From positions 1 through 45,478 of the forward strand of contig CAJWHW010000015.1 in the NCBI GenBank assembly GCA_913040915.1: a DNA stretch of 45,478 bases, in the 5' to 3' direction. Position 1 is the stretch's first letter, and each line of letters opens with the position of its first letter. Shown one piece after another: positions 37,118 to 42,448 of the stretch. The stretch is from an uncultured Fidelibacterota bacterium (GTDB lineage: Bacteria > Fidelibacterota > Marinisomatia > Marinisomatales > UBA1611). The position numbers and the translations under genes are program-made. Below the pieces are notes generated by a model. That model was not told where the DNA came from and did not search any database. It saw only the letters and a list, made by a program, of their open reading frames with translations.

Positions 37118-37242
37118 TAAATTGTGAGTGAATTATCGGTAGAAAATCGTTATTTTTAATAAAGAAAAATGACTTTATCCTCTGGAGTAACCTTGGATTT
37201 TTGTCTAATTCAATATTTAGTATTTATGAGTCGGAGAACAAG

Positions 37243-40200
37243 ATGGCATTAAAGAGAACCAGTATTAAGAATATTTTTATTTCTTTTTTGCTTGCTGGAT
37301 TGGTATTTGCAAATGTAACTATTTCTTTAAGTGATGTTGAAGTTGATGGATATACAGAGAATATTGTAGTACCAGTCCACCTCAGTAATCCAATTAATGA
37401 TGTAGGTGGTTTTCAATTTGATATTATTTCCTTGCCCACATTCGTTGAACTTTCTGGTGTAACACCCATTGATGCTGAAAATTTTAATACAGACTATACT
37501 GTTTTTGATAATGGATCCGGTCGAGTAGTATTTTATTCCAATGACGGTAATGGCATAATTGCAGGAGGTGATAATGTTGTACTAAACCTCCATTTTTATG
37601 GCTCCGATGTTTTGTCAGCATTACTGGATTTAGATATGTACAATTTGGTTGTTAGTAATGAAGATGGTGACCTACTGGAAGGAACTGCTGAGAATGGATC
37701 TATCACTATTGGTCATATGGTATATTTAAGTGCTTCAACAGATACCGGAGATGTGAATGAGGAAGTATATCTTGATATTTATTTAGATAATCCTGGTATA
37801 GTGGGTGGTCTTCAGTTTGATATTTTTGATGCCCCTAATTATTTAGATGTAACCGATTTTGCAACCACGGACCGTTCAAATGGTTTTAGTGTTGATTTTA
37901 CGGAAATGGATAATGGGATGACGCGTGTCCTAATGTATAATGCTAACAATGAAAATATTCAAGCTGGTGATGGTTCAATTCTAAATATGACCATGACCGT
38001 ACACGAAAATGCATATAATTCCAACGTTGCTTTAAATTTTAAAAATGTGATCGTAACAGATGATATGGGTGGAACCTATTGGATAGCTGCTGCAGATTCT
38101 GGGACAGTAATAGTTACCCCTGGATACATTGAAGAGCCTCACAACTTGATTGCTCTTGATGGGGAGGATGCTCAGGTTGAATTAAACTGGAGTCCTCCAC
38201 AAGGCCCTGCATTTGTTTTCTTGGATGAAACATTTGATGAAGGATTATCAGATTCATGGACTATTGTGGATGGAGGAGATCAGGGGTTTACATGGGAATG
38301 GATAGAATCTTATGAATCTTTTTATGGTGCATCTACATTGGATGGGACTCCTTTTTTATATTGTGATGCAGATGCCGCTGGTTCTGGGTCTTGGTTTGAT
38401 GATGAGTTGGTTTCCCCAGTATTTCCTACATCAGGAGAATTATTTTTATCCTTTGATCACTTTTATGTTGATTATGCTTCTGATAATGTTGCCTCAATTG
38501 CTAATGTTGATGTATGGAATGGTACACAATGGGTGAATGTTTATCAGGTTTCAGAAAATGGACTTACCTTAGGTGCCTGGGATACACCAGATCAACAAAT
38601 ATTGGATATTTCTAGTCATTCTAATGGTCAATTCAAACTTCGTTTCCATTATATTACAGATCCAACTTCTTGGGAATATTATTGGGCAATTGATAATATC
38701 CGTCTTGCAAATTATTTGCGAGACGGCCGTTACTCTGCTGTTTATGAATTGAGTCCTAGAGGCTGGAGTTTAATTAACCAAGGTACTCGTGAAGAAATGA
38801 AAAATGTCTTCAGTTCTGGAAATTGGCCCTATGCTTATTCCGATCCTGAGACCTTTGAAATAGTGGATAATTCTTTGTCGATAGAAAACCAAAATTCTCG
38901 TCCTATTGATATTGATGCATATAAAGTTTATCGTTCACTCAATGAAGCTGCTGGTTTTGAAGAAATTGCCGAAGTAGATGGTGGAATAACAACCTATCTT
39001 GATGATAATGTAGTTAATAGCACTACTTATTACTATTATGTCACTGCGATATATCCTGATGGCTCTGAATCTGGACCAACGAATACAGTTTCAGCTACAC
39101 CCGTAGAGTGGGTCGAATTATGGATGGATGACGGTGCATCCCTAACAGGTCAGATGGATACATTGGATTTTTATATTAATAATGAATCTGATCTCGGGCT
39201 ATTTTATTTTGAGATTTTAGATTATCCAGATGTAATAAATAGTATAAATATTTTCCCAACTGAAAGAACTTCAAATTGGTCCATTGAAATTTCCGACCAG
39301 GGTAATGGTACGATTGCCATCACTGGGTTAAGCTTAGGTCCAGCCCTAACCTCGGGAGACGGAGCAGTATGCAGTGCAGTTTTATATCCTGATGCAGCGG
39401 AAGCAATGACTGTTTCATTATCCTATACCAGCTCAACGGCTGTACAGGATATGAATTATATCGATTTGAATTGGTACCCGGAAAGTGCCACTTATGATGT
39501 GGGCATTGAAACTCAATACTTACATTTTACTGGTGGTGCAGGTGAAGGTGGAAGCGAATTTTTATCATCAATTATTTTGGATAACACACAGCCAGTTTAT
39601 GCGATCCAATTAGATATTTCTGCTGACCCACCATTGATGATCGGGACAAATGTCATTCCCAGTAGTTCGCATGATTTCTCTAACTGGGATATTTCAGGTA
39701 CTGTGATTGGTAATTTTTACCGTTTAGTCATGATAGATAATTCTCAAACATCGCCTATTAATCCTGGCATGTCGCACATTGCAGATCTAACATTTGAAAT
39801 TGATGAAGGTGCGCCAGTGGATATGGATGTTGTCTTAGATATGATCGATGGTGAAATTTCAGATATTAATGGTTTACCAATGCATATGGAGTCAATACCA
39901 GGCCATGTTCATATGGGATTACCTGAGGTGATGTTTACAATTCAAAATGCTTCTGGAGTATTGGAGCCAGGCGGGGTGGGAACTTTTGAAGTCCATATGG
40001 ACAATACTGAATTAGTAGGTACTTTACAGTTTACATTAGCAGAAATGCCGGAAAATATTACAGTAACAAATGTATCTCAGGTTGACCGCTTTGCTGACGG
40101 TATCATTGACGGAAGTTCTGAGGAACAAGAAGATGGGACTTATTATTTCTTAGGTTTTGACTTCTCGACAGGAATTGAAGCTGGATCTGGACCCATACTT

Positions 40201-40644
40201 GAATTTGAAGTGCAATTTCCCGAAAATTTGAATAATTCTTCTATTTTTATGGTTCTAGACCCAGTAGCTGCTGGTGATGCAGGTGCAAACCCTCTAACAA
40301 CAATTTTCCACCACATTGGTCAATTTACTGGTTTCTTATCTCTAGATAATTCAGCTACAGTTCCGAATGAGTTTGCATTATATCCAAATTTCCCAAACCC
40401 ATTCAATCCAGCAACCATGATCACTTACGATCTTCCAAAAGATATAGATGTTCGAATTGAGATTTATGATATTATGGGTAGAAATATCAATACCTTAGTC
40501 AATCAAAATATGTCAGCGGGTCGTCATTTCATACCTTGGAATGCCACAGATATTTTAGGCAATCAAGTTAGTGGAGGAATTTATCTTTACAGATTGCAAG
40601 CTGGAGAGAATGTATTGACTAGAAAAATGATTTTAATGAAATAA
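37243..40644 (+). CDS. Large acidic secreted protein: five cohesin-like modules, a split FN3 with an inserted beta-sandwich, and a C-terminal FlgD-Ig/T9SS-type sorting-like domain
   Basis: GGAGA Shine-Dalgarno before ATG 37243 and a signal peptide ending LVFA. Recurrent N...VGG[FL]QFDI...P and I.AG.G.IL motifs. C-terminus NFPNPFNP...IYDIMGR...GIYLYRL...TRKMILMK. Confidence 0.8.
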   Translation: MALKRTSIKNIFISFLLAGLVFANVTISLSDVEVDGYTENIVVPVHLSNPINDVGGFQFDIISLPTFVELSGVTPIDAENFNTDYTVFDNGSGRVVFYSNDGNGIIAGGDNVVLNLHFYGSDVLSALLDLDMYNLVVSNEDGDLLEGTAENGSITIGHMVYLSASTDTGDVNEEVYLDIYLDNPGIVGGLQFDIFDAPNYLDVTDFATTDRSNGFSVDFTEMDNGMTRVLMYNANNENIQAGDGSILNMTMTVHENAYNSNVALNFKNVIVTDDMGGTYWIAAADSGTVIVTPGYIEEPHNLIALDGEDAQVELNWSPPQGPAFVFLDETFDEGLSDSWTIVDGGDQGFTWEWIESYESFYGASTLDGTPFLYCDADAAGSGSWFDDELVSPVFPTSGELFLSFDHFYVDYASDNVASIANVDVWNGTQWVNVYQVSENGLTLGAWDTPDQQILDISSHSNGQFKLRFHYITDPTSWEYYWAIDNIRLANYLRDGRYSAVYELSPRGWSLINQGTREEMKNVFSSGNWPYAYSDPETFEIVDNSLSIENQNSRPIDIDAYKVYRSLNEAAGFEEIAEVDGGITTYLDDNVVNSTTYYYYVTAIYPDGSESGPTNTVSATPVEWVELWMDDGASLTGQMDTLDFYINNESDLGLFYFEILDYPDVINSINIFPTERTSNWSIEISDQGNGTIAITGLSLGPALTSGDGAVCSAVLYPDAAEAMTVSLSYTSSTAVQDMNYIDLNWYPESATYDVGIETQYLHFTGGAGEGGSEFLSSIILDNTQPVYAIQLDISADPPLMIGTNVIPSSSHDFSNWDISGTVIGNFYRLVMIDNSQTSPINPGMSHIADLTFEIDEGAPVDMDVVLDMIDGEISDINGLPMHMESIPGHVHMGLPEVMFTIQNASGVLEPGGVGTFEVHMDNTELVGTLQFTLAEMPENITVTNVSQVDRFADGIIDGSSEEQEDGTYYFLGFDFSTGIEAGSGPILEFEVQFPENLNNSSIFMVLDPVAAGDAGANPLTTIFHHIGQFTGFLSLDNSATVPNEFALYPNFPNPFNPATMITYDLPKDIDVRIEIYDIMGRNINTLVNQNMSAGRHFIPWNATDILGNQVSGGIYLYRLQAGENVLTRKMILMK

Positions 40645-40665
40645 AATTATGATTACTCATACTTA

Positions 40666-40696
40666 AATAAAGCCCTACATAATGTGGGGCTTTATT
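40666..40696 (+). terminator. Intrinsic terminator
   Basis: AATAAAGCCCTACA-TAA-TGTGGGGCTTTATT, after the large secreted-protein gene. Confidence 0.75.
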
Positions 40697-40733
40697 ATTG
40701 TAACAATATTTAAGTTTGTGATAGAAAATTAAT

Positions 40734-40816
40734 GCCGCGGTGGTGGAATTGGTAGACACGCCAGATTTAGGATCTGGTGCACTTTGTGCGTGAAGGTTCG
40801 AGCCCTTTCCGCGGTA
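40734..40816 (+). tRNA. tRNA-Leu(UAG)
   Basis: GCCGCGG acceptor, GGAATTGGTAGAC D-arm, CCAGA(TT TAG GA)TCTGG anticodon arm, long variable arm and GGTTCGAG T-loop. CCA is not encoded. Confidence 0.96.
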
Positions 40817-41002
40817 CTTTGATACAATATTATTTTAATTTTGTTTGAATAAAGTGTTAAGAAAGGCAGATTTGATTAATTGGCGATGTAGTACTTTATA
40901 TAAATTTGAAAAATACTTAAGTCAGATAATTAAGAAGGTGTGCCAATTTTTATTCATGATGAAAAATGGTTAGATAATTATTATTTATGTAAAATTTTAC
41001 CA

Positions 41003-41181
41003 TATAATTTTGTTAATTTTATGCGTGGAATTTTCTTAACCAAATTAAAAGGAGGTGATCAGTTGTCTATTTTAAATAATTTGCTGACCTCCAAAGTTTC
41101 AGCAAAATAAATCCACGATGCTGTCTTTAGAGGTCAGCTTCAAAATATAAAAAAGCGCACAGATTAAGTGCGCTTTTTTAT
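41003..41181 (+). ncRNA. Putative small structured transcript containing a 29-codon ORF (41021-41110)
   Basis: TATAAT at 41003-41008, AAAGGAGGTGATC at 41048-41060, a 13/14 inverted repeat at 41083-41096 / 41125-41138, and a terminator at the 3' end. Confidence 0.5.
41147..41181 (+). terminator. Intrinsic terminator
   Basis: ATAAAAAAGCGCAC-AGATTAA-GTGCGCTTTTTTAT, a perfect 14-bp inverted repeat. Confidence 0.85.
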
Positions 41182-41224
41182 TTATTTATGTATTTAGCAT
41201 AAAAATTAATCATGGTACAATGTT

Positions 41225-42448
41225 ATGATGCAAATGCCTTCAATAATTGATACAATCATCATTGGAGCTGGGCCATCAGGACTGGCCTGCGCAATTCAGT
41301 GTCAGAAAAATAATATACCTTTTCTATTAGTTGAACAATCCGAAAGAGTTGGGGGTAGAGTCGGTTCTGTAGAAATAGATGGTTATATTTTTGATCTTGG
41401 TTTTCAGGTTTATAATACTGCCTATGAAATGACTAATATGTTATTGAATCTGGATGAAATAAAGCTCAATCATTTTAAACCAGGTGCAATGATTTATGAT
41501 GGAAATACATTCAAAAGAATATCAGACCCACTCAGAGATTTTAAACATATTTTTTCCACCATACTCTCTGATATCCCCACTTTTCACGATAAATTGAAAA
41601 TATTAAAACTTAAATTTATTCTCAGGGGTTATAAAATAAATCACGATACTAGTTCTGATATTTCCACTTATGAATATCTATTATCTCAAGGGTTTTCAAA
41701 TAGGATCATTGAGATGTTTTTCAAGCCGTTTTTTGCAGGTATTTATTTAGAGAATAAGCTTAAAACATCATCAAAATTTTTTAAATATGTTTTTTCAAAA
41801 TTGAATATCGGTCTGGCATCTTTGCCTGAAAAAGGTATGCAAGCAATACCTGATGATTTATCCAATAAGATAAATGCAAAAAATATAATCATTGGTAAAA
41901 AAGCAGTTAATATTATTGATCAACAAAGTATTAGTTTTGATGATGGCAATATTGTTAATGCAAAAAATGTAGTGCTTACAGGAGAAAGCAGCCACTTGGT
42001 TACTGGTAGGCCTAATCGATATAACTCTATAATAACATTATATTTTTCAACGAATCTTACTCTGTTGCACGGGAAATATATTCATCTTTATCCTTATGAT
42101 GAATTGATAAATAATATCGCTTTTCCCACATCCATATCATCGTCATATTCAAAGGATGGTAAAAATTTGATTTCAGTTAATGTTAAAGAAAACAATATCC
42201 AGAAAAAAGACATCATCAAACATGTACAAAGTAGATTAGCGAAATATTACGGTGGTGAAGTACAACATTATCAATTTTTAAAATCCTTTGAAATAAAAAA
42301 TGGAACTTTTATCCAACTTCCTGGCCATTTTGATCAATTAGAAAAACAAAAAAGAAGTCCTTATATTATTGGTGAAACTCAAATAGTTGGTAGTATTGAA
42401 GGTGCAGTACAATCAGGATTAGAAATGGCAGATAGTCTTATAAATTAA
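41225..42448 (+). CDS. FAD-dependent oxidoreductase (amine oxidase / phytoene desaturase / HemY-like superfamily)
   Basis: IIGAGPSGLACA, E..RVGGRV, FDLGFQVYNTAY, FFKPFFAGIYLE and SIEGAVQSG. Confidence 0.85.
   Translation: MMQMPSIIDTIIIGAGPSGLACAIQCQKNNIPFLLVEQSERVGGRVGSVEIDGYIFDLGFQVYNTAYEMTNMLLNLDEIKLNHFKPGAMIYDGNTFKRISDPLRDFKHIFSTILSDIPTFHDKLKILKLKFILRGYKINHDTSSDISTYEYLLSQGFSNRIIEMFFKPFFAGIYLENKLKTSSKFFKYVFSKLNIGLASLPEKGMQAIPDDLSNKINAKNIIIGKKAVNIIDQQSISFDDGNIVNAKNVVLTGESSHLVTGRPNRYNSIITLYFSTNLTLLHGKYIHLYPYDELINNIAFPTSISSSYSKDGKNLISVNVKENNIQKKDIIKHVQSRLAKYYGGEVQHYQFLKSFEIKNGTFIQLPGHFDQLEKQKRSPYIIGETQIVGSIEGAVQSGLEMADSLIN

Follow-up and report, generated by a model that had tools for sequence, protein, structure and literature searches.

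Closest described systems

In Bacteroidia, helices of 9-13 bp between the Shine-Dalgarno sequence (SD) and the anti-Shine-Dalgarno sequence (ASD) of the 16S rRNA are distinctive of rpsU, the gene of ribosomal protein bS21, and this mRNA is translated by bS21-less ribosomes with a free 16S tail, in an autoregulatory manner; both points are set out in the portions of McNutt et al. on which we draw (PMC9976891), as is the scope of that analysis of extended SDs, which spans Bacteroidia and Chlorobia. A 2026 paper from the same group, cited here for this result, states that ASD ablation chiefly impairs rpsU translation (PMC13000453). Here we describe a small unit with an SD of this kind in an uncultured member of the order Marinisomatales (SAR406/Marinimicrobia). 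It lies at positions 41025-41181 of the window, by which we mean the whole stretch of 45,478 nucleotides analysed (contig CAJWHW010000015.1 of assembly GCA_913040915.1, forward strand). The observation is real and the unit represents a conserved family, in which the SD precedes a reading frame of 15 codons that carries its own copy of the rRNA tail and runs into a long hairpin followed by a terminator.

The unit shares with the rpsU of Bacteroidia an SD-ASD helix of 9-13 consecutive pairs, beyond those of the other genes of its genome (for the Bacteroidia, in the same portions of PMC9976891), and a host in the Fibrobacteres-Chlorobi-Bacteroidetes (FCB) group, with generally weak SD use. The rpsU of Marinisomatales also has an SD of 6-12 nt, and the spacing and non-AUG start of the small open reading frame (sORF) of the unit resemble the initiation region of rpsU in this genome. 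The unit differs in that it would control a 15-codon frame on a stand-alone RNA instead of rpsU, and in two additional parts, an internal mimic of the anti-SD and a hairpin. Moreover, tail sequestration belongs to the described Bacteroidia system and is a putative feature in Marinimicrobia.

Other described systems match parts of this arrangement. In the attenuation of erm and cat by their leaders, a short frame has a good SD and the ribosome frees a downstream SD-like segment. The distal codons of the unit similarly pair with a downstream SD-like segment, but this strand is followed directly by a terminator and by no cistron, relatives' sequences showing no conserved start codon of a second cistron past it, and the context is not antibiotic-related. 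The STAB-SD of the Bacillus cryIIIA mRNA is a 5' stabiliser with no used start codon after the SD; the unit resembles it in having, close to the RNA 5' end, a near-perfect SD that would bind the 16S tail beyond what ordinary initiation sites do, but it keeps a start codon and a frame of fixed length. SgrS/SgrT and SR1/SR1P are dual-function small RNAs (sRNAs) with a small ORF. Like them, the unit would be a small terminator-ended RNA with a short frame and a conserved base-pairing segment, but this segment lies inside the frame and mimics rRNA, and no target in trans was found in the assembly. The ingredients (extended SD, SD sequestration, leader-type sORF) are known; as far as our searches reach, their stand-alone combination with an rRNA-tail mimic is undescribed, and the literature found on Marinimicrobia/SAR406 small RNAs or on extended SDs and anti-SD mimics does not describe the element.

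A conserved family in Marinisomatales

The source genome is an 85%-complete metagenome-assembled genome with an assembly of 1.86 Mb. A BLAST search with 41025-41184 of the window recovered the unit at 74-88% identity in 31 of the 53 other genomes of the same family (32/54 with its own), almost always in single copy. A covariance model (R1) built from 27 copies matched 33 of 151 sampled Marinisomatales genomes, with hits in 17/27 genomes of family f1, 3/26 of f9, 4/4 of f10 and 8/10 of f16, and none in the other twelve families of the order among these 151. Searches of 121 genomes belonging to other orders within the phylum, and of genera g2 (0/4) and g12 (0/9), likewise did not find the unit. 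Across 185,579 species genomes, a search pattern was matched at 72 loci, 50 of which score at least 73 bits with the model; the high-scoring carriers named by organism are Marinimicrobia and the remainder are unclassified, the exception being a single contig labelled Winogradskyella. This 4.7-kb contig (L136, CAXRJK010000051.1), binned as Winogradskyella sp., bears a full copy of the element scoring 82 bits and is most likely a mis-binned Marinimicrobia contig. A scan of metagenomes added at least 120 stretches, and 79 of the 80 listed bear marine record names. As far as searched, the element family is therefore limited to Marinisomatales.

The unit had been singled out in the window in a model's reading of the letters (hereafter the original prediction), which proposed an unannotated small RNA/sORF unit and suggested a collection of homologues. 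The collection yielded a family of 106 distinct copies, pooled from genomes and metagenomes, on which the feature statistics below are based. The unit is indeed unannotated: in a scan of 40300-41600 on both strands against Rfam 15, with E values up to 10, only the tRNA passes its gathering threshold, and the best other match, Thr_leader, reaches 32.4 bits against a cut-off of 55. In families that lack the element, no analogue with a full SD was found among 20 places matching a 12-mer, three of which are ends of 16S genes and the others coding-like or without a short conserved frame. The unit is laid out as follows (helices as in the minimum free energy (MFE) and centroid structures).

40989..41008, + strand: palindrome GTAAAATTTTAC and TATAAT, a possible promoter in this genome only, outside the conserved unit
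41025..41047, + strand: A/U-rich 5' leader, with GUGGA (41025-41029) first and containing UUAAC; homology begins here
41048..41060, + strand: SD1, AAAGGAGGTGATC, complement of the entire single-stranded 16S 3' tail
41063..41110, + strand: sORF with TTG start, 15 codons (MSILNNLLTSKVSAK) and TAA stop, recognised by conservation of start and stop
41083..41092, + strand: anti-SD mimic GCUGACCUCC (codons 7/8-10), 5' strand of helix P1 and alternative partner of SD1
41080..41106, + strand: alternative local hairpin UUUGCUGA/UCAGCAAA, in which CCUCC would sit in an 11-nt loop
41093..41128, + strand: inner part of the long hairpin
41093-96/41125-28, + strand: helix P1b, AAAG/CUUU
41100-04/41119-23, + strand: helix P2, CAGCA/UGCUG
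41105-41118, + strand: apical loop holding the stop codon
41130..41138, + strand: 3' strand of P1, GAGGUCAGC, itself SD-like, pairing with GCUGACCUC
41147..41181, both strands: intrinsic terminator of 14 pairs, terminator-like on the minus strand too

Direct reading confirmed the letters on which the original prediction was built, namely the palindrome (40989-41000), TATAAT (41003-41008), an ATG at 41021, the 13-mer at 41048-41060, the TTG at 41063, the TAA at 41108-41110 and a 14-pair terminator at 41147-41181. Comparison with relatives redrew the limits of the unit. The palindrome and TATAAT, first taken as parts of it, fall outside or at the edge of the conserved region, where homology begins at about 41025: the stretch 40989..41008 is non-homologous in relatives, and a promoter scan gave no + strand site there. 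Similarly, the nearly leaderless frame of 29 aa from the ATG at 41021 is particular to this genome, an upstream in-frame start being found in just 49 of the 106 copies, while the in-frame TTG at 41063, also pointed out at the time, proved to be the conserved start of the family.

A Shine-Dalgarno sequence matching the whole 16S tail

The 16S 3' end reads GGATCACCTCCTTT in five genomes of the same family, and SD1 matches GAUCACCUCCUUU at 13 of 13 positions, which bears out the exact complementarity originally claimed. The 11-13-mer occurs once in the 1.86-Mb assembly. At least one match with up to one mismatch also appeared in 13 of 100 shuffles of the window, and for a match at a single site taken alone chance is not negligible. 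The site rises above chance because the motif and the whole unit are conserved across genomes and metagenomes, recurring in 50 species-level genomes and at least 75 metagenome contigs.

The variation of the 13-mer is itself informative. AAAGGAGGTGATC is present in 77 of the 106 copies, AAAGGGGGTGATC in 19, AAGGGAGGTGATC in 7, and three variants are singletons; every change is from A to G and leaves the position paired, as G.U, with the U residues (UUU and U) of the 16S tail. The changes include some in the leading AAA, for which the internal mimic offers no partner. Because changes there are limited to A-to-G in a segment that the mimic does not pair with, they indicate that the selected partner is the rRNA, and they are the best evidence to this effect. 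With a spacing of 6 nt between GGAGGU and UUG, an extended SD, that is 9-13 consecutive pairs at SD distance, is present in all 106 copies when G.U pairs are allowed. The predicted energy of the duplex between SD and 16S is -22.6 kcal/mol, compared with -16.9 for the rpsU of this genome and roughly -7 to -8 for a usual SD of five bases.

Against the rest of the genome, the 13-nt SD stands out as an extreme case. Of 1155 long ORFs, 18.5% have a 4-mer SD core between -20 and -4, versus 5% in a control window, and GGAGG precedes about 1% of them. The next-longest SD found before a recognised gene is that of rpsU (GGAGGTGAT, 9 nt, with a GTG start), located apart from the element on contig C7 of the source genome G000 (63020-63265, minus strand, locus L173); one 10-mer, GGAGGTGATC, is on contig C4. 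Across 60 Marinisomatales genomes (L174-L233), the complementary run before rpsU is at least 9 nt long in 39 and at least 6 in 56, reaching up to 12 nt, and the start is mostly GTG or TTG, while the genomes of about 1 Mb of family f12 have no extended rpsU SD. This extended SD of rpsU in Marinisomatales resembles the autoregulatory signal of Bacteroidia, in a different phylum.

As the 13-mer is the reverse complement of the 16S 3' end, it could in principle be what is left of a decayed 16S rRNA gene, or a ribosome-binding site whose gene has been deleted, an outcome that the original prediction named as fatal to its own proposal. However, the identity to the 16S complement ends after 13 bases, and frame, hairpin, promoter and terminator are conserved together in more than 100 distinct copies. 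We consider a relic excluded by the conserved 15-codon frame and hairpin, and leave it hardly any probability.

A frame of fixed length and variable peptide

The TTG start and a stop at codon 16 are found in 50/50 distinct genomic copies. In the metagenome loci the start is present in 77/80 and the stop in 75/80, three of the remaining loci reaching no stop before the locus ends and two carrying an early TGA; the three without TTG are taken as chance matches. Over the 106 copies the stop is TAA in 97, TAG in 7 and TGA in 2. Start and stop are thus kept, and the frame open, across diverged copies that use all three stop codons, as expected of a small ORF. An AG precedes the TTG start, and the distance from the start to the base of the hairpin is a constant 18 nt.

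The encoded peptide follows the pattern M-(S)-(N/K/S)-x4-L-T-S-x-(G)-x3 and is otherwise diverse: the 51 distinct genomic sequences, including a chance match in KSB1, encode 35 different peptides, and the 80 metagenome loci encode 47. Conservation is limited to about 5 of the 15 residues, whose codons are fixed at synonymous sites too.

The unit could be a plain gene for a functional peptide of 15 residues, M-S-(N/K)-x4-L-T-S-x-(G)-x3, in which the strong SD would provide high output and the structure would tune translation or stability. The preserved length and stop, with three stop codons in use, are in line with such a micropeptide, as are two conserved motifs, M-S opening the peptide and L-T-S at its centre, a composition that is hydrophilic throughout, and some synonymous variation at codons 6, 12 and 14. 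However, ten of the 15 positions vary freely, and the codons of L-T-S are invariant at synonymous sites, as is the non-coding strand with which they pair, which points to a constraint at the RNA level. Furthermore, no linked modifying, export or receptor genes accompany the unit, whose context depends on the clade, and a weak UUG in every copy would be odd for a high-output gene. We therefore hold a micropeptide gene to be unlikely, if still a serious contender. It was offered by the original prediction along with a ribosome-interacting regulatory RNA, and both readings keep some probability.

Rather, the fixed stop at codon 16, the invariant weak start, the variable peptide, the invariant pairing segments and the constant distance of 18 nt all point to a frame whose translation would matter for its effect on the RNA that carries it.

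An anti-Shine-Dalgarno mimic with competing partners

Codons 8-10 (CUGACCUCC), CTG ACC TCC, are invariant in 49 of 50 genomic copies, the other having TCT. Together with the preceding G they form GCUGACCUC, which pairs with GAGGUCAGC over 9/9 positions (G:U allowed) in 94 of the 106 copies and over 8/9 in the other 12, the changes being mostly to wobble pairs. This helix, P1, with a duplex energy of -19.8 kcal/mol, closes the base of a long imperfect hairpin whose 5' arm is made of the last eight codons and whose apical loop contains the stop codon.

The same mimic can pair with SD1 (-13.9 kcal/mol), GGAGG with CCUCC and UCAGU with GCUGA. This pairing takes in the first base of the UUG start and is more extensive than originally seen. 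In predicted folds, a transcript truncated before the 3' strand forms the SD:mimic helix, whereas in the full-length minimum-energy fold P1 is formed and the SD is free, the forced SD:mimic conformer lying 3.4 kcal/mol higher. The mimic has a third possible partner in the local stem GCUGA/UCAGC; 84 of the 106 copies have the 3' half of this stem, as UCAGC or UCAGU in codons 13-14. The original prediction had described three mutually exclusive pairings of CCUCC, based on TTTGCTGA/TCAGCAAA (41080-87/41099-106) and GCTGACCTCCAAAG/CTTTAGAGGTCAGC (41083-96/41125-38) in addition to the SD; these segments read as described, all three pairings exist, and the two main ones use family-invariant nucleotides.

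The fold of 41018-41185 has a z of -5.9 relative to shuffles. Its inner helices are clade-specific, with CAGCA/UGCUG here, CUCAUU/AAUGAG in f16 and a side hairpin UAAGAG/CUCUUA in g13. Because MAFFT misaligns the 3' arm between clades, structural conservation was gauged by the energies obtained when arms are swapped instead of by a count of covariations: native arms give -27.3 kcal/mol and inter-clade chimeras -23.6, a mean gap of 3.7. A further contact is possible between GUGGA (41025-41029) and UCCAC (41112-41116), the loop bases just past the stop codon, to which it is complementary; the same two sites read GUGUGU and ACACAC in g13 and f16. Such a pairing would form a pseudoknot, which a terminating ribosome would open.

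The CCUCC segment also raises the possibility of an RNA acting in trans, either as an anti-SD sRNA whose CCUCC, looped out or released by translation, masks the cell's few strong SDs such as that of rpsU or as a decoy of 30S subunits through the 13-bp helix, with the sORF only switching the RNA. The local hairpin GCUGA/UCAGC would indeed show CCUCC in its 11-nt loop, the energy of the SD:tail duplex relative to that of rpsU means that the RNA would outcompete the rpsU mRNA for free tails, and the rarity of strong SDs in the genome would leave few targets. However, no extended target is found in the assembly, where TTGGAGGTCAGC, allowing at most one mismatch, matches only the element itself or sites that are not at starts, and sequence comparison across clades indicates that the flanks of the mimic do not co-vary with those of the rpsU SD. 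A pure decoy or sRNA would moreover leave the stop at codon 16 unexplained, and we find this explanation improbable.

An autonomous unit in changing surroundings

Sigma-70-like promoter sites precede 68 of the 106 copies, against 11/106 in a reversed-sequence control; most relatives have, in place of the palindrome and TATAAT of the window, TTGACT followed after 17/18 nt by TAAGAT or TAAAAT. We infer an RNA 5' end at GUGGA (41025-41029), and the leader measures about 25-30 nt across copies. A terminator-like hairpin with a T-run follows P1 in 91 of 106 copies.

Analysis of the gene neighbourhood, also suggested at the outset, revealed no constant downstream gene. The next ORF of at least 80 codons past the terminator is convergent in 18 of 27 relatives' loci, and the remaining loci differ from one another. 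Pfam scans covered 15 flanking ORFs from 6 of the 27 loci. In the main clade of f1 the flank consists of a protein of a carotenoid-synthesis family (PF04240) and a sulfotransferase (PF19798); this convergent pair always comes after the element there (L036, L035, L038 and others). A HAD hydrolase gene flanks the element in g13, an outer-membrane beta-barrel protein gene lies upstream in g15, and in g6 the gene of an MFS transporter is found downstream, on the strand of the element. The downstream counterpart in the window is an amine-oxidase/desaturase-like flavoprotein. A loose link between the element and pigment genes is possible.

In the window, this downstream gene (41225-42448, + strand) encodes an amine-oxidase-family protein that binds flavin adenine dinucleotide (FAD), and directly before it is a promoter-like site, TTAGCA-16-TACAAT with an upstream TG, at 41194-41221 (+), which suggests that it is transcribed on its own. 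According to one proposal of the original prediction, the unit would be a leader peptide or attenuator controlling this FAD-dependent oxidoreductase. The gene does follow on the same strand in the window, and sub-threshold matches to the Rfam Thr and Trp leaders exist (32 bits vs 55), although these are largely driven by the terminator, and a stretch of the other strand holding only the terminator scores about equally. The mostly convergent and clade-dependent next genes of relatives contradict an attenuator, there is no regulated biosynthetic operon downstream, and no run of regulatory codons is found in any of the 35 and 47 peptide variants. Neither the MFE nor the constrained folds contain an antiterminator, for which no dedicated search was made. 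Since the genes downstream vary or are convergent, most copies have promoter- and terminator-like sites of their own, and the FAD gene has its own promoter-like site, the unit is autonomous, and an attenuator of the oxidoreductase therefore fails as an explanation and is very improbable.

Just upstream of the unit is a tRNA-Leu(TAG) gene (40734-40817). Synteny with relatives, which comprises a large cohesin-domain protein with a type IX secretion system (T9SS) sorting signal and this tRNA gene, stops at 40817-40824, at the 3' end of the tRNA. Everything beyond, the element included, differs among genomes, and the copies of relatives are on contigs different from that of the tRNA-Leu; this comparison gave no clue as to how the unit reached its locus in the window. 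The cohesin-domain protein is encoded by an ORF of 1147 aa at 37201-40644 (+), with a C-terminal Por/T9SS sorting domain, and a terminator-like hairpin near 40670-40695 ends this ORF.

A translation-coupled riboregulator?

Our preferred reading, to which we assign a probability of about 0.4, is that the unit is a riboregulator coupled to translation, which 30S subunits would engage when their 16S tail is free; its logic would be that of the control of rpsU by an extended SD in Bacteroidia. The unit would be transcribed independently into an RNA of about 165 nt, whose 5' part presents an SD able to pair with the 16S 3' tail over its full 13 bases, and then a UUG start. Ribosomes would translate the 15-codon frame, with selection acting not on the peptide but on how long the frame is and where it lies relative to the RNA structure. 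Codons 8-10 would serve as an anti-SD look-alike, which in the nascent RNA could sequester the SD along with the start codon's first base. Within the finished RNA, the downstream GAGGUCAGC would capture the look-alike to form the base of the long hairpin, with the stop codon in its apical loop, and translation would have to melt this hairpin. Transcription from the predicted start, translation itself, and the availability of the tail as the signal sensed are all presumed in this scheme. Candidate outputs would be the stability of the RNA itself, competition with the rpsU mRNA, and the exposure of SD-like or anti-SD segments.

A more specific and doubtful version of the riboregulator would make the RNA an independent sensor of the state of ribosomes. 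Its SD would be seized only by 30S subunits whose tail is exposed, for instance because they are immature or lack bS21; by holding such subunits and being translated by them, the RNA would compete with the rpsU mRNA and so set the bS21 content of the ribosome pool, while the mimic would act as a gate.

To our knowledge, no cultured member of the lineage exists, and evidence of expression comes from assembled marine RNA libraries and sequencing runs. In one of four marine metatranscriptomes, a contig of 181 nt at depth 8 spans 41047-41158 with 13 differences and 2 indels. These differences make it a relative's copy; its size fits the predicted RNA, and it is a hint at expression. The other three libraries show nothing over the element, which, as they were available as contigs only, is no evidence of absence. 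Each of the 21 sequencing runs that match the region covers a share of at most 0.09, mostly in its tRNA-Leu part.

Several observations weigh against a riboregulator of this kind. No regulated target was identified for the unit, and across the 60 genomes the presence of the element follows no clean pattern with the SD length or start codon of rpsU. The bS21 of this genome aligns better to that of E. coli (E = 7.5e-13) than to that of F. johnsoniae (7jil_z, E = 5e-7), and this comparison gives no guide to a putative sequestration of the 16S tail in these ribosomes; a visible SD peak at -13 to -9 before ORFs suggests that the tail is at least partly accessible in ordinary ones. As regards structure, the arm-swap result is moderate, 21% of 1526 chimeras being as stable as natives, and the swap of the 5' end and loop is weak (-7.9 vs -6.1 kcal/mol, 29% of swaps equal), while P1 and the SD1:mimic helix draw no support from compensatory changes because both are invariant. 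The 181-nt contig reveals neither ends nor strand and may be contaminating DNA. Finally, the copy of the window itself lacks the promoter-like site of its relatives, and a search of one further genome of its genus, the only other one covered and 92% complete, did not find the unit.

Implications for Marinimicrobia

SAR406 is among the most abundant uncultured lineages of the dark ocean. The extreme SD signal of rpsU, which in Bacteroidia allows a subpopulation of ribosomes to control its own make-up, is now found there on another unit, which is tiny, conserved widely and equipped with its own copy of the rRNA tail. The plainest reading of this unit is still a conserved 15-codon gene overlooked by annotation pipelines. 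If it does read ribosome state, the bS21/anti-SD circuit would have a second arm, made of RNA, and this would be the first found outside Bacteroidota. Should the unit respond to the state of ribosomes, the control of ribosome heterogeneity would reach beyond Bacteroidota, and the unit would provide a natural switch compact enough for tests in vitro.

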